64,000 bases of DNA, taken from positions 358 through 64,357 of the forward strand of contig JAZKIQ010000005.1 in NCBI GenBank assembly GCA_040384765.1, read 5' to 3'. Source of the stretch: Patescibacteria group bacterium (lineage in GTDB: Bacteria > Patescibacteriota > Minisyncoccia > Phycocordibacterales > JBBUBG01). The translations under genes and the position numbers were made by a program. Positions within the stretch are counted from its first letter, which is position 1, and each line of letters begins with the position of its first letter. Under the pieces are notes generated by a model. The model worked only from the letters and a program-made list of their open reading frames with translations, was not told the DNA's origin and ran no database searches. Shown in pieces: positions 13,798 to 60,158 of this stretch.

Positions 13798-13880
13798 AGG
13801 ACAGAAGGACAGAAGTAGTTGCAGGACAGAAGTAGTACTACTTCTGTCCCTCTATACTTCTGTCCTGCAACTACTTTTTA
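13797..13880. repeat. intergenic stem-loop built from GGACAGAAG direct and inverted repeats (mreB-proS gap)
   Basis: aggacagaaggacagaagtagttgcaggacagaagtagtactacttctgtccctctatacttctgtcctgcaactac then ttttta; nested perfect hairpins. Confidence 0.55.
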
Positions 13881-16449: not shown

Positions 16450-16510
16450 CAAGAGTTCAGACATCAGAGTTTAGAGTTCAGTCTGACTGAGCTCTGATCT
16501 CTGAACTCTG
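16450..16510. repeat. family-B palindromic 9-mer cluster copy 1 (rseP start / frr stop gap)
   Basis: caagagttcagacatcagagtttagagttcagtctgactgagctctgatctctgaactctg. Confidence 0.6.
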
Positions 16511-17093: not shown

Positions 17094-17153
17094 CAGAGAT
17101 CAGAGTTTAGAGTTCAGCCAGACTGAGCTCTGATAACTAAACTCTGAACTCTT
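17094..17153. repeat. family-B cluster copy 2 (frr-holB gap)
   Basis: cagagatcagagtttagagttcagccagactgagctctgataactaaactctgaactcttg. Confidence 0.6.
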
Positions 17154-18541: not shown

Positions 18542-19561
18542 CTAGCGCTTAGCATTAACACTCTTTTTATAAACATCGAGATGCTCCAGCGCCACTCCGG
18601 TCCCATTTGCCACACAGTAGAGCGCGTTTTCGGCAAGCACAGCCTTTACACCGGTCCTTCGGTACACAAGCTCTGGCAGGTTGCGGAGTATCGACGAGCC
18701 GCCCGTCATCACGATTCCATAGTCAATAATATCTGCAGCGAGCTCAGGGGGCGTTTCTTGGAGCACATCTTTGATCGCTTTGATCATTTCGCGAAGCTCT
18801 CCATCGATCGCTTTTACGATCTCATTGGTCGATATCTCCACCGATCGCGGAAGCCCTGTCAAAAAATCTCGCCCTTTAATAGCCGTAAACAGCTCATCTT
18901 CCACGAGCACCGCTGACCCGATACTGATCTTCACCTCTTCGGCTGTTCGCTCACCCACCGCCAAGTTGAACGTACGTTTAATATAGTCTGCAATCGCCAA
19001 GTCGATCTTCGTACCAGCGCATTTCACCGATTTGGAAGCAACGATACCTCCGAGCGAGATTACCGCCACATCGGTCGTACCTCCTCCAATATCGACAACC
19101 ATATGTCCGCGTGGCTCATAAATAGGGATACCTGCACCGATGGCGGCCAAGATCGGCTCTTTTACCACATACGCATTTTTAGCGCCCGCTCGTACAGCGG
19201 CTTCGATCACCGCACGACGCTCTGTCGAGGTGACTCCCGCCGGCACCGACACCATCACCTCTGGCTTCCAGATGTTCCAGCGAGGAAGCGCTTTGCCGAT
19301 AAAATAGCGAAGCATGGCCTCCGTCACGCGATAGTCTGCGATGACGCCATCTTTCATGGGCCTGTAGGCGATCACATGATCCGGCGTCTTGCCGATCATA
19401 TCTCTGGCCTCATTGCCCACAGCGAGCACCGTGTTGTCGAGCTCAGACACAGCCACCACCGACGGCTCGTTGAGCACAATCCCCTTGCCAGGCAAAAAGA
19501 CGAGCGTGTTTGCCGTACCCAGATCGATGCCGAGTTTGGTGGTAAAAAAAGGAAGAGCCAT
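18542..19561 (-). CDS. mreB: second MreB/Mbl-like actin homolog; ORF track start 19624 is a TTG extension
   Basis: DLGTANTLVFLPGKG, GGGTTDVAVISLGG. Confidence 0.8.
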   Translation of the reverse strand: MALPFFTTKLGIDLGTANTLVFLPGKGIVLNEPSVVAVSELDNTVLAVGNEARDMIGKTPDHVIAYRPMKDGVIADYRVTEAMLRYFIGKALPRWNIWKPEVMVSVPAGVTSTERRAVIEAAVRAGAKNAYVVKEPILAAIGAGIPIYEPRGHMVVDIGGGTTDVAVISLGGIVASKSVKCAGTKIDLAIADYIKRTFNLAVGERTAEEVKISIGSAVLVEDELFTAIKGRDFLTGLPRSVEISTNEIVKAIDGELREMIKAIKDVLQETPPELAADIIDYGIVMTGGSSILRNLPELVYRRTGVKAVLAENALYCVANGTGVALEHLDVYKKSVNAKR

Positions 19562-19615
19562 GTGTGGGGTTAGTATGCGTTGGCAAGGTTCGTTTTGCAA
19601 ACTGGCCAAAAAAGC

Positions 19616-19722
19616 AAATCCCAAGCACCAAATTCCAGATATATTTCAATATTCAAAATACAAATAACCCAAGTTTAGTATTTGAGTTTTGAGTATTTTC
19701 TGGAATTTGGTGCTTGGGATTT
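19616..19722. repeat. family-F element copy 2 with perfect 24-bp terminal inverted repeats aaatcccaagcaccaaattccaga, in divergent mreB2/priA promoter region
   Basis: perfect 24-bp TIRs; loop aaataacccaagtttagtatttgagttttgag homologous to copy 1 loop. Confidence 0.65.
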
Positions 19723-19770
19723 GAAGAAGGAAGCGCTTCTAGATGCGCCACGTCTATGCCATTATAGCCC

Positions 19771-22287: not shown

Positions 22288-23625
22288 ATGGCTGAGATAC
22301 GTGAAATCGTACAGGAAGGGACGCCTGTTCTTCGTGAAGTTACGAAAGAGGTTCCCCTTGAATCAATACGATCTCCAAAAATTCAAAAACTGATCGCCGA
22401 GATGAAGGCGACCGCTTCCAGGTGCGTAGATGGCGTAGCCCTCGCTGCACCACAGATCGGAGAGCCACTCCGCATTTTTGTTGTATCACCTCGTGCCTAT
22501 GCAGAAGGCGAGGATCTTTCGGAAGAGAATCTCGTCTATATCAACCCCAAAATAGTAAAGCTCTCCAAGAAAAGAGAAGAGCTCGACGAAGGATGCCTCT
22601 CTGTGCGCAATGTGTATGGCAAGATCGAGCGCTCAGAACGTGCCACGATCGTCGCATATAATGAGCACGGCGTGTCATTCGAGCGAGGTGCAGGCGGACT
22701 CCTCGCAGAGATATTTCAACACGAGATGGATCATCTCGAAGGAAAGCTTTTTATCGACTTTGCACGCGATCTGCGCATGGTGCCTCCTAAAGAGGTGCCT
22801 CGATTCGTTTTTTTTGGCACACCAGAGTTTGCGGTGCAGGTAGCAGAGGAGCTTGAGAAAAAGGAGCTGCTCCCCATACTAGTGGTTGCTGCACCTGACA
22901 AGCCGGTCGGCAGGAAGGGCGTTATCACTCCCCCACCCATGAAGGTGTGGGCAGAGAAGCGGCACATACCGTGCATCCAACCAGCAACGCTCAAAGGGAA
23001 AGAGGCGCTCGATACTCTTGTCGGGGAACAGCCCATACTGTTTGTCGTTGCCGCCTACGGCAAGATCATCCCTCAATCTATTCTTGATATCCCTTCACGC
23101 GGCACCCTAAACGTGCACCCTTCGCTTCTTCCCCGCCATCGCGGAGCAGCACCTATTCAGACAGCGATTCTTGAGGGAGACAAAGAGACAGGGGTGTGCG
23201 TAATGGTGCTTGATGCAGAGATGGATCATGGGCCAATCCTAGGATGCGAGCGACTAACGCTCGGAGAGTGGAAGCCCTCATACCCAGAGCTCGAAGAGAA
23301 GCTTGCACTTATGGGAGGTAAGCTTCTCGCGCGCCTTATCCCAAAATGGGTCAAGGCAACTATTGAGCCGAAGGAGCAAGATCATGTGAAGGCAACATTT
23401 ACAAAAAAACTTGAGACCGAAGATGCATTTGTTGAGCCAGGCGAAATAGAGAGCGAGCTTGCCGATCGCAAGATTCGCGCACTGCATCCGAGCCCAGGCG
23501 CATATACGATATTAAAAACAAAGACAGGCAAAGAGGTGCGACTCAAACTGCTACCTGGAGGCAAAGTGATTCCGGAGGGGAAAAAAGAGATGCTGTTTAG
23601 AGAGTGGAAGAGGGGCAATCTCTGA
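22288..23625 (+). CDS. def-fmt: fused peptide deformylase / methionyl-tRNA formyltransferase (Def-Fmt fusion)
   Basis: N-terminus has Def motifs GVALAAPQIG, EGCLSV, QHEMDHLEG; C-terminus has Fmt motifs FFGTPEFAV, HPSLLPRHRGAAPIQ; single uninterrupted 445-aa ORF. Confidence 0.8.
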   Translation: MAEIREIVQEGTPVLREVTKEVPLESIRSPKIQKLIAEMKATASRCVDGVALAAPQIGEPLRIFVVSPRAYAEGEDLSEENLVYINPKIVKLSKKREELDEGCLSVRNVYGKIERSERATIVAYNEHGVSFERGAGGLLAEIFQHEMDHLEGKLFIDFARDLRMVPPKEVPRFVFFGTPEFAVQVAEELEKKELLPILVVAAPDKPVGRKGVITPPPMKVWAEKRHIPCIQPATLKGKEALDTLVGEQPILFVVAAYGKIIPQSILDIPSRGTLNVHPSLLPRHRGAAPIQTAILEGDKETGVCVMVLDAEMDHGPILGCERLTLGEWKPSYPELEEKLALMGGKLLARLIPKWVKATIEPKEQDHVKATFTKKLETEDAFVEPGEIESELADRKIRALHPSPGAYTILKTKTGKEVRLKLLPGGKVIPEGKKEMLFREWKRGNL

Positions 23626-24668: not shown

Positions 24669-25376
24669 CTACTTCACTACTACGCTCGTGAGCAGAATAT
24701 CCGTAAGCGGTTTGTCTCCTTCTCCATGATTTACCGGAGCTGACTCGATCTTATCAACAATATCCATACCAGAAACGACACTGCCAAAAGCGGTATGCTT
24801 GCCGTCGAGCCATGGGGTTGCCGGGGCAGTGATAACAAAAAACTGCGAACCGTTTGTGTTTGGCCCCGCATTTGCCATTGCGAGCACACCACGCACAAGC
24901 GCCTCATCGCTCGTCTCGTCTGCAAACTGGTAGCCTGGGCCGCCAGTGCCCCAAGAGGCCCGCTTGCTTGAATCCTTTGAAAACGGATCTCCGCCCTGGA
25001 TCATGAACCCCTTGATCACTCGGTGAAAGCGGGTGCCATCGTAAAAATGCTCATGTGCAAGCTTGAGAAAATTTTCAACTGTCTTTGGAGCCTTATCGCG
25101 AAAGAGCTCGAGCTCGATAATGCCAAGCGAAGTGGTAAAGACAACATGAGGGCGAGCATTTGGGGTTTCCATAGGTTTTGGTGGGGTTTTTATAGCTGGA
25201 GAAGTAATAGCAGGAGCGGTATGAACTCCTGAGACAGCCGCGTCTCGAACAAATGAGTCTTGCTCTGTCGCGACTGACCGCGAAAAGAACACGAGGCCAC
25301 CTGCAGTAAAGGCTGAAAATACAATAAAAGTGATCCAGTAGGCGATATCTTTCATTAAAATAGAATACCGCATCAA
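24669..25376 (-). CDS. ppiB: membrane-anchored cyclophilin-type peptidyl-prolyl cis-trans isomerase
   Basis: N-terminal TM; FHRVIKGFMIQGGDP cyclophilin signature. Confidence 0.8.
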   Translation of the reverse strand: MMRYSILMKDIAYWITFIVFSAFTAGGLVFFSRSVATEQDSFVRDAAVSGVHTAPAITSPAIKTPPKPMETPNARPHVVFTTSLGIIELELFRDKAPKTVENFLKLAHEHFYDGTRFHRVIKGFMIQGGDPFSKDSSKRASWGTGGPGYQFADETSDEALVRGVLAMANAGPNTNGSQFFVITAPATPWLDGKHTAFGSVVSGMDIVDKIESAPVNHGEGDKPLTDILLTSVVVK

Positions 25377-25388
25377 GAGATAAGAGGC

Positions 25389-25479
25389 CAGAGTTCAGAG
25401 CTCAGTCAGAACGAAAGCGGCGCCTCGAAGAGGCGCCGCAGCCTGAACTCTGTTTACTGAACTCTAATCTCTAAACTCT
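25389..25479. repeat. family-B cluster copy 3 with embedded GC hairpin gcggcgcctc-gaa-gaggcgccgc (hpf-ppiB gap; last unit overlaps hpf stop codon)
   Basis: cagagttcagagctcagtcaga...gcctgaactctgtttactgaactctaatctctaaactct. Confidence 0.6.
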
Positions 25480-30351: not shown

Positions 30352-30368
30352 GTACGCCGGAAAAAGAA

Positions 30369-30414
30369 AACCCGCCTGCACTGCACGGATTTTCCGTGCA
30401 GTGCAGGCGGGTTG
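30369..30414. terminator. bidirectional terminator, 20-bp perfect stem
   Basis: aacccgcctgcactgcacgg-attttc-ccgtgcagtgcaggcgggtt; T-run on minus strand. Confidence 0.65.
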
Positions 30415-30418
30415 TTAG

Positions 30419-31119: not shown

Positions 31120-31160
31120 GAGCAAGAAAAAAGACCCCTTACGGGGTCTTTTTTCTTGCT
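31120..31160. terminator. bidirectional terminator aagaaaaaagacccc-ttac-ggggtcttttttctt
   Basis: perfect 15-bp stem with A/T runs on both sides. Confidence 0.65.
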
Positions 31161-31412: not shown

Positions 31413-31607
31413 ATGTGGCAGCAATGGGCAAACATGCTCATGGGCCTCTGGGTTATCGTTTCGGGGTATCTCGGATTTACCCCTGATGTGATGGCAACCA
31501 ACGTCACCATCTCGGGTGTCCTTATTTCAGGTTTTGCATTGTGGGGAGCCCTTGAACACCAGAGGATGAGCGACGGCCAATATGGCCGCAGAGAACGGCA
31601 CGCATAG
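31413..31607 (+). CDS. small 2-TM membrane protein (SPW-repeat-like)
   Basis: 64 aa; two hydrophobic hairpins GLWVIVSGYLGF / ISGVLISGFALWGAL; followed by hairpin at ~31625-31655. Confidence 0.35.
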   Translation: MWQQWANMLMGLWVIVSGYLGFTPDVMATNVTISGVLISGFALWGALEHQRMSDGQYGRRERHA

Positions 31608-31664
31608 CCATAGAAAAATATAAAAAAGGAACCCGGCCGCGACGAATTCGCAGCCGGGTTTCTG

Positions 31665-32138
31665 CTATCTGAATGGATTCGGAATCGGTGCACGCCAGAG
31701 AGATCTTCTGCGCACCGTTCGCCATGGATAGAAAAGTCGCGCCATCACCACCTCTCCGCGCAGGAGAAGCTGACGCTGTATTCCGAAGAGCTGGATCGCA
31801 AGAAGCGTATACAGCCGGATCATTGCAGGCGAGTAACTGTGCGGCACAATGAGCGGCACCACTCCCTTAGGTCGTGTCATAAGCCGCTCCGCCTCGTACA
31901 AGCGAATACGAGTTTGCTTGACCTGAATTCGCAGCGTCGAACCATCACGCAGATACATAACGGCATCTGTTTTTTCGTGATAGTCCTCATGCTTGGTCGC
32001 CCGTCGGACGTACGCAAGCCACGGAGGATAGTAGCGCGGATTCGACCACGCAGAGACAAACAGCTCCTCCGAAATGCGTCCGTTTCGGTTGCCAACTACT
32101 CCATCAACAGCACTCAAGAAAGAGACCTCCTTAAACAA
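31665..32138 (-). CDS. hypothetical protein divergent from lexA (candidate SOS-regulated gene)
   Basis: 157 aa; shares the LexA-box-containing intergenic region with lexA. Confidence 0.4.
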   Translation of the reverse strand: MFKEVSFLSAVDGVVGNRNGRISEELFVSAWSNPRYYPPWLAYVRRATKHEDYHEKTDAVMYLRDGSTLRIQVKQTRIRLYEAERLMTRPKGVVPLIVPHSYSPAMIRLYTLLAIQLFGIQRQLLLRGEVVMARLFYPWRTVRRRSLWRAPIPNPFR

Positions 32139-32212
32139 GAACCCCCGCAGGGACTATACCGAGGAGTTGTGGCGCGAGCAAGAAAAAGAGTTTTCCACCG
32201 TCTGCGCTTGCA

Positions 32213-32230
32213 TGTGTACGATCGTACACA
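32213..32230. promoter_or_regulatory. putative LexA operator: perfect 18-bp palindrome TGTGTACGATCGTACACA (GTAC-N4-GTAC type)
   Basis: perfect palindrome 13-30 nt upstream of lexA ATG in the divergent region. Confidence 0.6.
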
Positions 32231-32242
32231 CATACTAGATGC

Positions 32243-32812
32243 ATGAGCATAAAACATACCATCGACCGAATCCGTACTTTTTATGATAGCCGAAAGCGCA
32301 TGCCTTCCGTTTCAGAGCTTGCAAAGCTGTTTGGCTACACCTCAAAGACCGCAGCCGCACGCCTTATCTCAAAGCTCATATTGGAAGCGGGATTTGAGAA
32401 AGATAAGGAGGGCAAGCTGCTCCCGCCTGATGACTGGGGCGAAATCATGATGCTTGGGTATGTTGAAGCAGGCTTCCCCTCCCCGGCCGAAGAGGAGCTC
32501 ATCGACACCATGTCGATCGACGAATATCTGATACAGCACCGCGAACGTACCTTCATCCTCACCGTAAAAGGTGACTCAATGAAAGATGCAGGTATCATGC
32601 CAGGCGACCTGGTGCTCGTAGAGCGTGGACTTGAGCCCAAAGATGGACAGATTGTAATCGCAAGTGTAGATGGCCAGTGGACAATGAAATATTTTAGAAA
32701 ACGAAGAGCGAGTGTCCTCCTTGAGCCAGCCAATGCTCGCTACAAGCCGATCGTTCCGAATGAATCTCTAGAAATTGGAGCGGTTGTCAAAGGCGTCATC
32801 CGAAAATATTAA
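32243..32812 (+). CDS. lexA: LexA repressor (S24 peptidase)
   Basis: N-terminal wHTH, Ala-Gly cleavage region, KGDSM Ser and MKYFRKR Lys dyad. Confidence 0.85.
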   Translation: MSIKHTIDRIRTFYDSRKRMPSVSELAKLFGYTSKTAAARLISKLILEAGFEKDKEGKLLPPDDWGEIMMLGYVEAGFPSPAEEELIDTMSIDEYLIQHRERTFILTVKGDSMKDAGIMPGDLVLVERGLEPKDGQIVIASVDGQWTMKYFRKRRASVLLEPANARYKPIVPNESLEIGAVVKGVIRKY

Positions 32813-32919
32813 AAAATGCATCGCGAGGCCCTACGAGCGATTCCACTTCCCCAACCACACCCACCCCAACGAGCAGATAAGAGAAATTCGCTTTCCGGTA
32901 GTTCTTTAAGAAAAGCTTG

Positions 32920-33045
32920 CGCAGTCGTCCGCAGCCGGTGCGGGGCATTTTTAAGTGTCGCTCAGCAGAGCAATGCCCCGACCGGACGACGAAAACCAGA
33001 ATAATTTTCCGCTGGGAAAATTATTCTGGTTTTCGAAAAGAATCT
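32920..33045 (+). other. two adjacent long stem-loops between lexA and dinB
   Basis: hairpin 1: gtcgtccgcagccggtgcggggcatt ... aatgccccgaccggacgac; hairpin 2: perfect 23-bp stem cgaaaaccagaataattttcc-gctg-ggaaaattattctggttttcg. Confidence 0.5.
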
Positions 33046-33066
33046 ACCGAAAAGCGACCGAAACCC

Positions 33067-34392
33067 ATGTTCCAACGATACAACGAACCCATTGAAATCA
33101 GCTCGTTCCCTCGCGCCATTATCCACATCGACGGCGACGCCTTTTTCGCTTCCTGCGAACAGTCGAAAGACCCTTCGCTCCGAGGAAAAGTAGTGGTCAC
33201 TGGCAAAGAGCGCGGGATCGTAGGATCTGTATCGTACGAGGGCAAAGCGCTTGGCATATCCCGCTCGATGCCCCTCTTTGAAGTACGGAAAAGATTCCCT
33301 CAAGCGATTATTCTCCAGTCGGACTACGAAACGTACTCCCTGCTCTCACACCGTTTTTTCTCTATCGTTCGAAGATACACACCCGTAGTCGAGGAGTACG
33401 GCATTGATGAGTGTTTTGCCGACCTCACTGGCATGCGAGGGCCACTTCACAAATCGTATACACAGATTCTCGATACGATTCAAAAAGAGCTCGCGCTCGA
33501 GCTTGGATGCACCTTTTCGATCGGTATGTCTGTAAATAAGGTGCTCGCAAAAGTCGGCTCAAAATGGAAGAAGCCTTCCGGCACGACGCTCATTCCAGGC
33601 CGCGATATCAAAACATTTCTGCGAGACCTTCCTGTACAGAAGATCTGGGGTATTGGGTTTGCCACAACAGCGCACCTCGAAAAACTTGGGGTACGCACTT
33701 CGCTCGAGCTAGCAGAGAAGCCACGCGAGTGGGTTGAGCGCCACTTTTCAAAACCAATGGTCGCCTTGTGGCGTGAACTAAACGGAGAGTATGTCATGGA
33801 GCTTAATCGAGAAGAGAATAGTGCTCCAAAATCGATTCAGAAATTCAAAACCTTCACGCCACCCTCGTCTGACTTTGATTTTGTTTTTTCACAAATCTCC
33901 AAAAATATCGAAAATGCCTGCATCAAAGCGCGCCGCTACGGGCTCGCCTCTCCCCGCATGCAACTGGTGTTACGCGAGCAGAACTTTCGCATGTACGGTA
34001 TCGACATCACCTTTTCCCGAAAAACAGCCTATCCCAACGAAATAGTTGTTCTTGCAAAAGAGGCGCTCCTTAAAATCTGGCGCCCCAAAGTGAGCTACCG
34101 GCAAACAGGGGTAACGCTCATCCTCCTTGAAGATGCTGCCCTCGAACAACCCGACCTTTTTGGTGAATCGCTCCGCACAGAAAAAATGGAACGAATTTTT
34201 GAAAAAGTAGACGCGCTCCAAGAGAGATACGGAAAACATACGGTGTATCTCGCCTCCTCAGAAAAAGCGCACCGTTTCTTTGTGCACGGAGGGGCTCGAG
34301 GAGACAGCGCGCTACGAAGGGGCGCCGAACTCATTGGAGCAACCAAACGGCAACATCTGGGAATACCGATCTTCCTTGGCGAAATACAGTAA
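33067..34392 (+). CDS. dinB: DNA polymerase IV (Y-family, DinB); ORF-track start 32917 is an extension
   Basis: IIHIDGDAFFASCEQ catalytic motif, SxGxS thumb, little-finger domain. Confidence 0.8.
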   Translation: MFQRYNEPIEISSFPRAIIHIDGDAFFASCEQSKDPSLRGKVVVTGKERGIVGSVSYEGKALGISRSMPLFEVRKRFPQAIILQSDYETYSLLSHRFFSIVRRYTPVVEEYGIDECFADLTGMRGPLHKSYTQILDTIQKELALELGCTFSIGMSVNKVLAKVGSKWKKPSGTTLIPGRDIKTFLRDLPVQKIWGIGFATTAHLEKLGVRTSLELAEKPREWVERHFSKPMVALWRELNGEYVMELNREENSAPKSIQKFKTFTPPSSDFDFVFSQISKNIENACIKARRYGLASPRMQLVLREQNFRMYGIDITFSRKTAYPNEIVVLAKEALLKIWRPKVSYRQTGVTLILLEDAALEQPDLFGESLRTEKMERIFEKVDALQERYGKHTVYLASSEKAHRFFVHGGARGDSALRRGAELIGATKRQHLGIPIFLGEIQ

Positions 34393-34394
34393 GG

Positions 34395-37187
34395 CTACTT
34401 CACCTCTACGACAAACGGAGCCACAACTATCTCCCCCTTGCTTTGGAACTCTGCGTACAGTTGGTAAAAACCTGGCTCTGGAAAGACGAGATCTGTCTCG
34501 ACGGAAGGACCGAATAGTTTTGGCAGGTCTCCTCCATGATGACTCCCCCCTCCAAACATACGTTGATACAGGGAAGGTGATGGCGTGCCGTGCGTATGGA
34601 TAAACTGATCAAACTCTTCCGAAGCGATCGTTATATGTGCGGCGGCCCCAAGGTATGGTTCAAGGTTAAAGAGAGGTGCACCCTCGCGTGCGAGAGCAAA
34701 TTTGATATGACTCTTTTTCCCCGCAATAAGCTCGCCATGGTCGAGCTCGACCTCTACACCACCAGTCGCACGAACCACAGTCTGACTTTCATGTGAAAGT
34801 GCCCTACGATCTTCACCAATCTGCACCGGATAGTGGTCAACATACGGAGTACCGTGATGCAGATAGCTGTATCCAATAAGATATCGGCCGGAGCGAGGAA
34901 ATTCGTACGAAAGAGTATACTCACCCTCTTTCGTAGGAGCATCTTCGGAGTGAAGGTGTGCAAATGAGACTCCGTCCTCTGCAATAACCGAAACATGAAG
35001 AGTCTTTTCATGCGAGATCTCAAGCCCGGAGATCGGATTTTTATCCGCACCTTGGAAGCGAATTAATATTTGAGAAGGGGCGCCCGGAATCGCACCATCG
35101 ACTCGCACAGAACTTTGTGGCCGAGGAGCACTCAAAAAATATTCGTACTCCGACTGATCAGCAAAATGGTAGGTAGAGATCCCCTCTCCCACCATGCAGC
35201 CGTACACCGCACGTGAGTTTATCGCAACACCAGCACGCATTGGAGCCGCTACATGCCAGTAGTGTCTATTTTTTTCACACGATCGATGAAAAGGTGTATC
35301 TGCAACAAGAAAACCTACGATGAACACGAGACCCGCAAAGATACCAACCCCAAGGAGCGACCGGAAAAGATGTCTCGCCGTAAGATCAGGAAGAAGCACA
35401 GACTCCCGCGGCAGCCCTTCTACAAAGAGAAGGTGTTTTCGAGCAACAGTGAATACGAGCAAGATTCCCGCAATCGCCACAAGAAGCACTCCTTCAAAGA
35501 GACCTCCGTTGTGCGCAAAGTGTGAGGGGAGGCGCATAAAGTCGCGCGGTGCATTGAGGGCAAACTGGGCAGTTGCATCGTATCCATCCTTTTGGGACTG
35601 GGAGACAAATGCAAACCAATGCCCTCCGGGCGTAAAGCTCACCTCAGGAAATACGTATCGATTTTCTGATCTCTTCTCGAGGGCCACGAGAATCGGCCCA
35701 ATACCCTCCTCTCTATTCTGGAGAAGCACAGTAGGCTCCCCCATAAGCACCACGCCACTCTTTGGCACGAGCCGAAGGAGCACCTGGCCATCTTCATACG
35801 GATCTGCAGAGAGCGTAAGCTCTACTCCAGAACTTACGATTTTTTCATAATACGCGGAGCGAGCGTGAAGCGGCGGGGTTGTAATAATAAGGATACTGGT
35901 GAGATAGAGCACAAAAAGCCCCGTAAAGAACTCAAGGGCAAGGATGTAGTTGTCGGTTTCTCGATCAAAAAAAGAGATAATTGCTTCCCCGACCGCACCA
36001 AGCATCCGCGGCAGCGTCACAATCTGGCCGTAGGCGCGAAAAAAGAAAAGTGCACCTGCGACAAGCGAAAGCTGGAGAAAGAGCACCCCCCAGTCAGTCC
36101 CTGCAATATGTTCAAACCCTTTGAGATGCAGCCAGATAATATAGGTACCTGTTGTCCCTCCAACCAAAAGTGAGATGAGCGCGAGCTTTGAAAATGCCAC
36201 ATATGCCCCCTTTTTTTGCGTACTCCTGTGAAAAAGGAACAGATACGCGATCACTCCTCCGACCCACAGATCTTTAAAGAGAAGGTGTACCCAATTTACA
36301 ACAATGGAAAAAGCAGGATAGATCTCTGAGGCGGCAGCATGGCTAATATGTGCTCGCAAAAATGCCATTGCGAGGACGAGTAAAGCAAGAATGAGGATTC
36401 TTGGTGAACGTTTTTGCATTAAGAGATCTCGAGAAACCCCTGCAAACAGAGCAAGGAACATAAGAGCGAGCACCCCCCGTACTATCGAGCTCATGCCTGC
36501 AGCTGTAGCGGCAAATATACGAGCGTTATCGAGAAATGTGCCGCTCGAAAGGAGGGAGAGGTCTCGCGTTTTAAGCACGAGATACGCAACCGTCCCTGCA
36601 AGAACGAGCGCGACTGCAACATATACAAATCGCCGCACCCGCTCCCTCGGAATGGTGCTGAAAAAATCTTCCTTTTTCCAGATACCGAGCAAGATAAACC
36701 CAAGGAGCGCCACGAGCATTGCTTGTCCAACAAGCTCAAGCCAGAGCGTAAACGCCTCGAGGCGAGTGCTGGAATGCACAATCTCAAAACCAGAGCCAAG
36801 ATAGGCTCCACTACTTGTAGCCGCTGTACCTACGAGAAGCGAGTATGCGCCCTTTGTAAAATGGCCGTCATCGCGGGACACCACCTCCCATGAGATGGTG
36901 TACGCACCCTCCTCCTCAAATGGAAATGGCGCCACGAGCTCCCGAGGCTCTGCCCCATCTACTCTTGAAACAAGCTCCGTGCTCTTCTCCACTCCTCTCG
37001 GGTAAACGAAGATGGAGCTTGCACCCGACTCCACCTTTTCACTAAAGGTGATACTCAGCTCTTCGGGGGCAGTTGTGAGTCGCGCACCGGCAGCAGGAGC
37101 AAAGCGCACCGGTGTGGCATGAGCCTCCGCAAAAAACGGAACCGCGGAGAAAAGAAACCCAAAAAAAAGAAGAATTATTTTGTTCAT
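34395..37187 (-). CDS. copper resistance CopC-CopD fusion membrane protein with additional C-terminal periplasmic domains (YcnJ-like)
   Basis: N-terminal CopC fold (HATPVRFAPAAGARLTTAPEELSITFSEKVE), ~8 TM CopD domain, C-terminal domains with FxHxH segments. Confidence 0.65.
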   Translation of the reverse strand: MNKIILLFFGFLFSAVPFFAEAHATPVRFAPAAGARLTTAPEELSITFSEKVESGASSIFVYPRGVEKSTELVSRVDGAEPRELVAPFPFEEEGAYTISWEVVSRDDGHFTKGAYSLLVGTAATSSGAYLGSGFEIVHSSTRLEAFTLWLELVGQAMLVALLGFILLGIWKKEDFFSTIPRERVRRFVYVAVALVLAGTVAYLVLKTRDLSLLSSGTFLDNARIFAATAAGMSSIVRGVLALMFLALFAGVSRDLLMQKRSPRILILALLVLAMAFLRAHISHAAASEIYPAFSIVVNWVHLLFKDLWVGGVIAYLFLFHRSTQKKGAYVAFSKLALISLLVGGTTGTYIIWLHLKGFEHIAGTDWGVLFLQLSLVAGALFFFRAYGQIVTLPRMLGAVGEAIISFFDRETDNYILALEFFTGLFVLYLTSILIITTPPLHARSAYYEKIVSSGVELTLSADPYEDGQVLLRLVPKSGVVLMGEPTVLLQNREEGIGPILVALEKRSENRYVFPEVSFTPGGHWFAFVSQSQKDGYDATAQFALNAPRDFMRLPSHFAHNGGLFEGVLLVAIAGILLVFTVARKHLLFVEGLPRESVLLPDLTARHLFRSLLGVGIFAGLVFIVGFLVADTPFHRSCEKNRHYWHVAAPMRAGVAINSRAVYGCMVGEGISTYHFADQSEYEYFLSAPRPQSSVRVDGAIPGAPSQILIRFQGADKNPISGLEISHEKTLHVSVIAEDGVSFAHLHSEDAPTKEGEYTLSYEFPRSGRYLIGYSYLHHGTPYVDHYPVQIGEDRRALSHESQTVVRATGGVEVELDHGELIAGKKSHIKFALAREGAPLFNLEPYLGAAAHITIASEEFDQFIHTHGTPSPSLYQRMFGGGSHHGGDLPKLFGPSVETDLVFPEPGFYQLYAEFQSKGEIVVAPFVVEVK

Positions 37188-37243
37188 ATAGATAGGTACC
37201 TCCACACAAGGTTGAACCTTGTGTGGAGCAACGTACCTACATG

Positions 37244-43384: not shown

Positions 43385-43468
43385 TCCCGAGAGAATAGCA
43401 CAGCACATTAGACAAAAGAAAAACCGCGAGCACTAGTGCTCGCGGCCAACCAAAAAACTAACTATGAA

Positions 43469-46288: not shown

Positions 46289-46307
46289 GTACCTAGCATA
46301 TCACGAG

Positions 46308-46410
46308 CAAGAGCTCAGTTGTCAGAGTTCAGAGTTCAGCCAAACAAAAGAGCGACGCCCTACGGGCGTCGCTCTTTTACTAAACTCTGAACTCTAATCT
46401 CTGAGCTCTG
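46308..46410. repeat. family-B cluster copy 4 with embedded terminator-like hairpin agagcgacgccc-tac-gggcgtcgctct-tttt
   Basis: caagagctcagttgtcagagttcagagttcagcc...ttttactaaactctgaactctaatctctgagctctg. Confidence 0.6.
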
Positions 46411-46413
46411 GCA

Positions 46414-48107: not shown

Positions 48108-49612
<1,505 letters not shown>

Positions 49613-60106: not shown

Positions 60107-60128
60107 CGACATATCGAAAACAAAAAAT

Positions 60129-60158
60129 CCCCGCTTCGGCGGGGATTTTTTGTTTAGC
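60129..60158. terminator. bidirectional terminator aaaaaatccccgc-ttcg-gcggggatttttt
   Basis: perfect 13-bp stem flanked by A and T runs. Confidence 0.7.

Follow-up and report, generated by a model that had tools for sequence, protein, structure and literature searches.

The DNA analysed here is a stretch of 64 000 nt (hereafter the window) from a Patescibacteria group bacterium (contig JAZKIQ010000005.1, assembly GCA_040384765.1). Positions 31665-34392 contain lexA, the translesion polymerase gene dinB and a gene divergent from lexA. Judging from the sequence, this locus would be the core SOS module of a Patescibacteria genome of the Parcubacteria/Paceibacterota type, i.e. an autoregulated lexA-dinB operon, and we place the probability of this reading at roughly 80%. 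A perfect 18-bp palindrome upstream of lexA is best read as the predicted autoregulatory operator of LexA. The original prediction, which was made from the sequence letters only, correctly spotted the locus as an SOS locus, and it is one of an already known kind. The features on which the reading depends are the following:

32208-32236, plus strand: predicted lexA-dinB promoter, with -35 element TTGCAT (32208-32213), 17-nt spacer and -10 element CATACT (32231-32236)
32213-32230, no strand: predicted LexA operator (SOS box), TGTGTAC-GATC-GTACACA, with core GTAC-N4-GTAC, filling the lexA promoter spacer
32243-32812, plus strand: lexA, 189 aa, Peptidase_S24 domain (8.9e-27, residues 71-181), with predicted recognition helix SKTAAARLISKL in a putative N-terminal DNA-binding domain
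33067-34392, plus strand: dinB, 441 aa, Y-family DNA polymerase (Pfam IMS 1.6e-40, IMS_HHH 2.3e-06, IMS_C 1.8e-09)

Predicted operator and promoter of lexA

The perfect 18-bp palindrome (TGTGTACGATCGTACACA) occupies window positions 32213-32230, and both its sequence and its coordinates had been given exactly in the original prediction. Its GTAC core begins 27 nt ahead of the lexA ATG (32243). Perfect palindromes of at least 18 bp number three in the window, and 0.23 were expected from window shuffles. Because chance alone could still yield an 18-bp palindrome, the case for an operator is built on position and conservation. The exact site TGTAC-N4-GTACA occurs once within the 64 kb. When the window was scanned with a position weight matrix, the lexA site alone exceeded the shuffle range (score 24.6); the second-best site, at 18964 (score 15.0), lies within mreB.

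Conservation was assessed in 80 loci encoding relatives of window LexA (48-62% identity) and spanning Patescibacteria, Nitrospirota, Omnitrophota, Verrucomicrobiota/Kiritimatiellia, Lentisphaerae and others. A high-scoring palindrome was found upstream of lexA in 66 of these loci, with the consensus (A/C)(A/G)GTGAAC-GATC-GTTCAC(T/C)T, and in most of them its 12-nt core begins at -26 to -29 relative to the lexA ATG (-27 in the window). In the closest relative (locus L083, 92% LexA identity) the box is 100% identical to that of the window and the flanks vary. Position and conservation across related lexA loci thus support the earlier proposal that the palindrome overlapping the lexA promoter is a LexA box.

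The sequence of the box varies together with the protein. Most relatives of window LexA show exactly GAAC-N4-GTTC, extended to GTGAAC-N4-GTTCAC. Symmetric GTAC half-sites were found in L005, L009, L054, L083 and the window; the other symmetric variants are GGAC/GTCC (L066, L072, L078), ATAC/GTAT (L042, L076) and GAGC/GCTC (L020), and hybrid half-sites are present in L017, L029 and L081. The GTGAAC half-site is paired with a predicted recognition helix SKNAV[F/Y]KL, the GTGTAC half-site with a helix SK-x-[A/G/S]-A-[A/V/L]-[R/K]-[I/L], and the TAGAAC half-site with a Tyr-containing predicted helix. This covariation involves few independent lineages (about five for GTAC) and has one exception, L014. 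Because both half-sites change symmetrically and track the recognition helix, the operator appears to be cognate to a dimeric LexA. The joint change of half-site and helix provides a natural series for studying the drift of LexA specificity.

Alternatively, the palindrome could serve a regulator other than LexA, represent clustered restriction sites (GTAC, CGATCG) or be a product of chance, and the expectation of 0.23 perfect 18-bp palindromes per window, together with two further long palindromes in the window, speaks for such an origin. In 66 of the 80 loci, from several phyla, however, this motif occupies an equivalent position with respect to lexA and the lexA promoter, and its changes are symmetric and follow the LexA recognition helix. 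We therefore give next to no credence to a site unrelated to LexA.

Two inverted 4-nt half-sites separated by a 4-nt gap are present as GTAC-GATC-GTAC. No E. coli-type CTGT-N8-ACAG was found in the 125-bp region upstream of lexA. The LexA box of Firmicutes and Actinobacteria is GAAC-N4-GTTC (PMC3323433), and the cyanobacterial consensus is RGTACNNNDGTWCB / AGTACWNWTGTACT (PMC3091678). Like the LexA (DinR)/Cheo box of Bacillus subtilis and Mycobacterium (PMC3323433), the window site has 4-nt half-sites with a 4-nt gap and overlaps the lexA promoter; unlike it, the window site has T in the second position of its half-sites, both halves being GTAC rather than GAAC/GTTC, and its conserved flanks are GT..AC, not C..G. 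The GTAC-N4-GTAC core and the palindromic layout are those of the cyanobacterial box, whereas the flanks differ (TGTAC..GTACA in the window, AGTAC..GTACT in cyanobacteria), as does the phylum. The window operator can accordingly be described as a predicted variant of the widespread GAAC-N4-GTTC box in which A is symmetrically replaced by T, with a core as in the cyanobacterial consensus. Since GTAC has arisen repeatedly within a clade in which GAAC predominates, the likeness to the cyanobacterial box is probably convergent. The family consensus and the published motifs both agree with the class first suggested for the site, Gram-positive or cyanobacterial rather than CTGT-N8-ACAG.

LexA regulation and the SOS network of Patescibacteria have reportedly been described before, by Sanchez-Osuna, Barbe and Erill in 2017 (Environ Microbiol 19:3465). 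That network and the present locus have the superphylum and the regulator in common. Excerpts of PMC7739468 and PMC8565304 cite the 2017 work, and the excerpt of PMC7739468 places it among the cases of direct-repeat LexA motifs. As GTAC is its own reverse complement, GTAC-N4-GTAC reads as a direct and as an inverted repeat alike.

Promoters were aligned on the box in 69 sequences (68 related loci and the window). TTGAC(A) stands directly against the box on its 5' side, the last base of the box is the first of TAtAaT, and the second T of the -35 TTG is T in 100% of the sequences. The window hexamers align column for column with the TTGAC(A)/TATAAT of the 68 related loci, and those of L083 read TTGCAC-17-TATACT. 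The operator would thus be the promoter spacer itself, between the -35 and -10 elements. Repressors that act by excluding RNA polymerase classically have their site in the promoter spacer. On comparative evidence, i.e. a palindrome that is conserved in 66 of 80 loci and lies between the -35 and -10 elements, lexA is predicted to be autoregulated.

The lexA ATG starts 7 nt after the -10 element and is preceded by no Shine-Dalgarno sequence, and the first ATG lies 10-12 nt downstream of the box in 34 of the 69 aligned sequences; for these reasons the lexA mRNA of the window is probably leaderless. The operator thus appears to stand exactly in the promoter spacer of a leaderless transcript, a layout common to several phyla. 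In about half of the 69 aligned lexA promoters (window 32187-32276) the first ATG is found 6-8 nt past the -10 hexamer with no Shine-Dalgarno sequence, a pattern suggestive of leaderless lexA mRNAs in Patescibacteria, Nitrospirota and other phyla.

The LexA protein has the residues needed for self-cleavage, and the Ala76-Gly77 cleavage site (VEAGFP), Ser112 (GDSM) and Lys149 (MKY) are invariant in 30 homologs. We take the spacing between cleavage site and catalytic dyad to match that of E. coli LexA (A84-G85/S119/K156). E. coli LexA structures align over residues 7-187, and TIGR00498 aligns over residues 6-188 with 109.5 bits (cutoff 110.95). The Pfam LexA_DNA_bind model gave no match in window LexA. 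The LexA proteins closest to that of the window carry the annotations Parcubacteria, Paceibacterota, Vogelbacteria or 'Patescibacteria group bacterium'.

Perfect unspaced palindromes also occur in intergenic positions at 13824-13849 (26 bp, GGACAGAAGTAGTACTACTTCTGTCC) and 43424-43445 (22 bp, CCGCGAGCACTAGTGCTCGCGG). The latter could be the operator of another regulator.

The lexA-dinB junction

The best NCBIfam models for dinB are those of Pol IV, with scores under the equivalog cutoffs. In 70 of 84 loci the gene comes after lexA in the same orientation, and the gap is usually below 50 nt. The window dinB has no LexA box and no convincing promoter of its own, and neither the window nor any of 26 related loci with an expanded spacer has a second LexA box ahead of dinB. 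Because dinB follows lexA in 70 of 84 loci and never has its own box, lexA-dinB is read as a conserved operon run from one operator.

In the proposed mechanism, a LexA dimer would bind GTGTAC-GATC-GTACAC in the 17-nt spacer between TTGCAT and CATACT and so keep RNA polymerase off the promoter. DNA damage would lead to RecA-stimulated self-cleavage of LexA (at Ala76-Gly77, by Ser112/Lys149), and the freed lexA promoter would give a probably leaderless mRNA carrying lexA and then dinB. From the gene order and the single operator, both genes of this genome are expected to be co-transcribed through the hairpins that separate them. An uncultured, reduced-genome bacterium would then retain a minimal SOS module consisting of lexA and a translesion polymerase gene, controlled by an operator of a known class, which is mainly as expected; neither the operator layout, nor the helix covariation, nor the nuclease-like family described below overturns current understanding.

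The junction itself contains the following elements:

32813-33066, plus strand: lexA-dinB spacer, 254 nt, with a C-rich, largely unpaired 5' part (about 32842-32887) followed by a 170-nt block of nested inverted repeats (32888-33057)
32888-33057, no strand: outer inverted repeat, 32888-32907 pairing with 33037-33057 over 19 bp and enclosing hairpins A and B
32935-32985, no strand: hairpin A, GC-rich, with 5 + 9 + 4 pairs
32990-33035, no strand: hairpin B, a perfect AT-rich stem of 21 bp (arms 32990-33010/33015-33035) with a 4-nt loop, -31 kcal/mol

For the spacer as a whole the predicted folding energy is -94.4 kcal/mol, with z = -8.1 and -7.2 in two computations. Hairpin A comprises 18-23 pairs within a span of about 50-67 nt (32935-32985; 32924-32990 if it is folded by itself). 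A small alternative hairpin at 32928-32944, followed by GCATTTTTAA, is terminator-like and competes with hairpin A for the same bases. Hairpin B is edged by CGAAAA and TTTTCG, and only TTTT follows the stem. The 3' arm of the outer repeat ends 10 nt before the dinB ATG. Two large stems had been announced for this junction. The perfect stem of 23 bp is present with 21 bp (32990-33010/33015-33035); an imperfect stem of about 60 bp corresponds to hairpin A, for which that length is the approximate span in nt and not the number of pairs, and the enclosing 19-bp outer stem had been overlooked.

Two reading frames in the spacer were rejected: a 62-aa frame (32816-33004) is not coding, and an upstream in-frame extension of dinB to 32917 is non-coding, the matches of dinB to L081, L082 and L084 starting at residue 1 from the ATG at 33067. 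The segment 32842-32887 (ccacttccccaaccacacccaccccaac) is C-rich, G-poor and predicted to be unpaired, a composition that resembles a Rho-utilisation site.

Several observations weigh against an autoregulated operon interrupted by a passive insertion. The window lexA promoter hexamers are weak when taken alone (7 of 12 matches) and were not reported by promoter scans. Read-through from lexA into dinB is assumed across 254 nt of predicted structure of very high stability, a terminator-like hairpin with a U-run stands in this spacer ahead of dinB, and dinB has no visible ribosome-binding site (Shine-Dalgarno). No recA, uvrA or ruv was found among the 30 largest open reading frames scanned, and no regulon can be demonstrated from the window. 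No second copy of the spacer or of its hairpins occurs in the 64 kb. Finally, uninterrupted stems of at least 20 bp are present in five of nine expanded lexA-dinB spacers of relatives and in nine of 228 neighbouring intergenic regions (Fisher p = 4e-5); this enrichment could reflect selection for function rather than passive insertion.

In L081 and L082 (77% LexA identity) the lexA-dinB junction measures 43 bp and the hairpins are absent; the hairpin spacer is likewise absent in L084 (74% LexA identity), and the alignment of L083 with the window ends right after the lexA stop codon. In L084 lexA and dinB are separated by a PemK-like toxin gene (2280-2663) that overlaps the stop codon of lexA. 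Long inverted repeats are widespread in the intergenic DNA of the genome to which the window belongs. In the window, 27 pairs of inverted repeats of at least 16 nt were counted, and uninterrupted stems of at least 15 bp occur in nine of 45 intergenic regions, including 30352-30418 (21 bp), 13798-13877 (23 bp) and the atpG-atpD junction. The latter, a spacer of 137 nt in the ATP synthase operon (49476-49612), contains a 25-nt inverted repeat (88% complementary). Because of this junction, long hairpins appear to be tolerated within operons of this genome.

Expanded lexA-dinB spacers of relatives are often highly structured (z = -12.7 in L057, -8.0 in L066 and -6.6 in L060). Uninterrupted stems of 20-29 bp were located in the spacers of L016 (4544-4703), L026 (4568-4752), L057 (4580-4764), L060 (4568-4774) and L066 (2165-2340). 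The spacer hairpins of different lineages share no sequence, and those of L057 and L066 are copies of repeats dispersed in the same locus (five copies in 6 kb in L066). Most simply, a junction within a tight operon would lengthen mainly by receiving a palindromic element. Insertion of such elements into tight junctions would therefore explain the stem enrichment as an ascertainment effect.

Repetitive extragenic palindromic (REP) and bacterial interspersed mosaic element (BIME)-type palindromes between cistrons, and elements like miniature inverted-repeat transposable elements (MITEs), are known from enterobacteria. The window spacer resembles them in having long stable inverted repeats between genes of one operon that are absent from close relatives; its equivalents in L057 and L066 are multi-copy, and its outer 19-bp repeat resembles terminal repeats. 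It differs from them in having no second copy in the window and no target-site duplication visible by eye. By analogy with these other genomes, the 170-nt nested block probably consists of inserted palindromic elements and is probably no dedicated attenuator. The spacer would be a lineage-specific insertion of nested palindromic sequence, the RNA of which most likely behaves as intercistronic palindromes do elsewhere, stabilising the lexA segment at its 3' end and partly restraining dinB, probably lowering its expression without gating it, and not as a regulated switch.

The window also contains two families of inverted repeats in intergenic positions. Units like AGAGTTCAG are found at 16452-16509, 17095-17152, 25376-25465 and 46307-46412, and repeats containing CAAGCACCAAATTCCAGA at 2525-2618 and 19615-19723. 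Both families look like dispersed palindromic elements.

The original prediction had seen in the stems a possible attenuator or non-coding RNA gating read-through into dinB. Formulated in full, the nested hairpins would be a dedicated regulatory RNA (attenuator or processing element) that withholds dinB until induction is strong or prolonged. Such a role would suit the very stable structure (z -7 to -8), the U-run hairpin at 32928-32944 competing with the larger hairpin A, the outer stem ending so close to the dinB ATG, and the enrichment of long stems in the expanded spacers of several phyla. It was not borne out by the comparisons. The spacer gave no Rfam match at the gathering score or at E up to 1, and it shows neither an evident leader peptide nor a ligand-type fold. 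The closest relatives lack the element, most lexA-dinB junctions being shorter than 50 nt, and across lineages no hairpin sequence is shared, the hairpins of L057 and L066 being copies of dispersed repeats. Equally long hairpins occur in many other intergenic regions of the window, even inside the atp operon, and the enrichment can arise by ascertainment if a tight junction lengthens only upon insertion of a palindrome. A dedicated attenuator is for these reasons improbable. An equally doubtful variant is that long intercistronic hairpins have been repeatedly recruited between lexA and dinB, in at least four phyla, to uncouple the two genes, the 170-nt structure of the window being one such tuning element. 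If this were true, the repressor would be re-made quickly while the output of the error-prone polymerase was held down.

The hairpins might also be full terminators, in which case lexA would be monocistronic and dinB would have a separate, unrecognised promoter and escape SOS control. The terminator-like hairpin with GCAUUUUUAA at 32928-32953 fits this possibility, as does hairpin B, which is flanked by A/T runs like the bidirectional terminators of the window (e.g. 31121-31160 and 60118-60155), and a weak promoter-like match (CCGACC-16-AATAAT) is present at 32978-33005. However, the U-tracts are short (4-5), hairpin B has an AT-rich stem, and the candidate promoter is a poor one that lies within the stems. 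As 70 of 84 loci keep lexA and dinB linked and have no separate box, dinB is likely to depend on the lexA promoter, and a comparable hairpin stands inside the atp operon, where read-through is expected. Complete termination is thus decidedly unlikely, and an operon read through inserted palindromes is preferred.

The divergent nuclease-like gene

On the other side of the operator the following features were delimited:

31665-32117, minus strand: divergent gene, 150 aa from the probable start TTG 32117 (the mechanical open reading frame extends to 32138), with an AAGGAGG Shine-Dalgarno sequence 8 nt upstream
32153-32181, minus strand: predicted promoter of the divergent gene, TTGCTC (32181-32176), 17 nt, TATAGT (32159-32154)
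31630-31660, minus strand: terminator-like hairpin, a 13-pair stem followed by CCTTTTTTAT on the minus strand, just past the stop of the nuclease-like gene

The 150-aa product matches the NCBI-annotated protein P0121, and the reading frame is 99-100% identical to 'hypothetical protein V4674_02635 [Patescibacteria group bacterium]'. When compared with L083, 41 of 63 substitutions fall at codon position 3 of the minus frame, and the codon changes comprise 37 synonymous and 17 non-synonymous ones. Because these substitutions show purifying selection, the divergent reading frame is a real gene. The plus-strand frame opposite to it, which is called as a gene in L083, was rejected: the substitutions fall on its first codon position and give 5 synonymous and 33 non-synonymous changes. 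The hairpin at 31630-31660 may also serve a small SPW-domain gene (31413-31607, plus strand).

A word-indexed search with the divergent protein found itself alone, and an exhaustive HMMER search found 64 remote homologs with 26-42% identity. In the family alignment E17, D51, Q65 and K67 are invariant and E44-D45 nearly invariant. An AlphaFold (AF2) model built from this alignment has an alpha/beta core (predicted local distance difference test, pLDDT, 86; predicted template modelling score, pTM, 0.78), with a helix at 3-23 and strands at 34-39, 52-56, 61-67 and 86-90; D51 is placed just before strand 2 and Q65-x-K67 in strand 3. The best Foldseek matches were EndoMS/NucS, VRR_NUC, Can2, AvaII and Cas4-like proteins, all weak (E >= 0.016, template modelling score about 0.3). 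No Pfam or NCBIfam family was matched by the protein, two of 40 family members gave marginal matches to Pfam NERD (0.007), and the family profile gave no match among PDB sequences.

Like PD-(D/E)xK nucleases (NucS/EndoMS, VRR_NUC, NERD), the protein has a predicted alpha-beta-beta-beta-alpha-beta core, with an extra short helix after strand 1, and it has an acidic residue in helix 1, Asp51 before strand 2 and Q65-x-K67 in strand 3. Unlike them, it has Gln in place of the usual Asp/Glu of the xK motif, and its sequence and structure give no significant match. With moderate confidence, the modelled fold and the conserved residues indicate that the divergent gene probably encodes a PD-(D/E)xK-like nuclease of an undescribed family. 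It would define a small uncharacterised nuclease-like family, so far found mainly in metagenomes.

The divergent gene had also been put forward as a new SOS gene sharing the palindrome with lexA. In its favour, the gene is real and lies head to head with lexA, with the operator within the shared 125-bp region; arrangement and box are both conserved in L083, and a nuclease-like fold would suit a function in DNA damage. The gene has, however, a predicted and conserved promoter of its own. L083 keeps its TTGC and TATAGT, with several substitutions in the spacer between them, and the LexA box starts 32 bp beyond its -35 element. The centre of the box would then be about 75 nt upstream of the expected start site, beyond simple occlusion. 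Among the 84 loci the gene was found beside lexA in L083 only (the sole tblastn match); other relatives have a different gene at this position, such as the HTH_3 gene of L081, or none. Four further family members (L085-L088) have no LexA box and no lexA neighbour. The same holds for a 42%-identical paralog, P0123 = V4674_03800 (L089 3806-4246, Logan contig), which has a strong TTGACA-16-CATAAT promoter and, by its locus-tag prefix, apparently comes from the same metagenome-assembled genome as P0121. Direct repression by LexA is probably absent, and membership of the SOS regulon is unlikely. The divergent gene would rather be a separate small nuclease-like gene with its own promoter, probably outside direct LexA control.

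Neighbouring genes

The window has a G+C content of 51%, and its other genes are housekeeping genes (mur ligase, penicillin-binding proteins, mreBC, ATP synthase, tRNA synthetases). Convergent with dinB is a gene (34395-37205) for a 936-aa protein with an N-terminal CopC domain; only 2 nt separate the two stop codons, with no terminator between them. A shorter CopC protein (568 aa) takes the corresponding place in L081. At 22288-23625 a single reading frame fuses peptide deformylase and methionyl-tRNA formyltransferase domains (Pep_deformylase + Formyl_trans_N).

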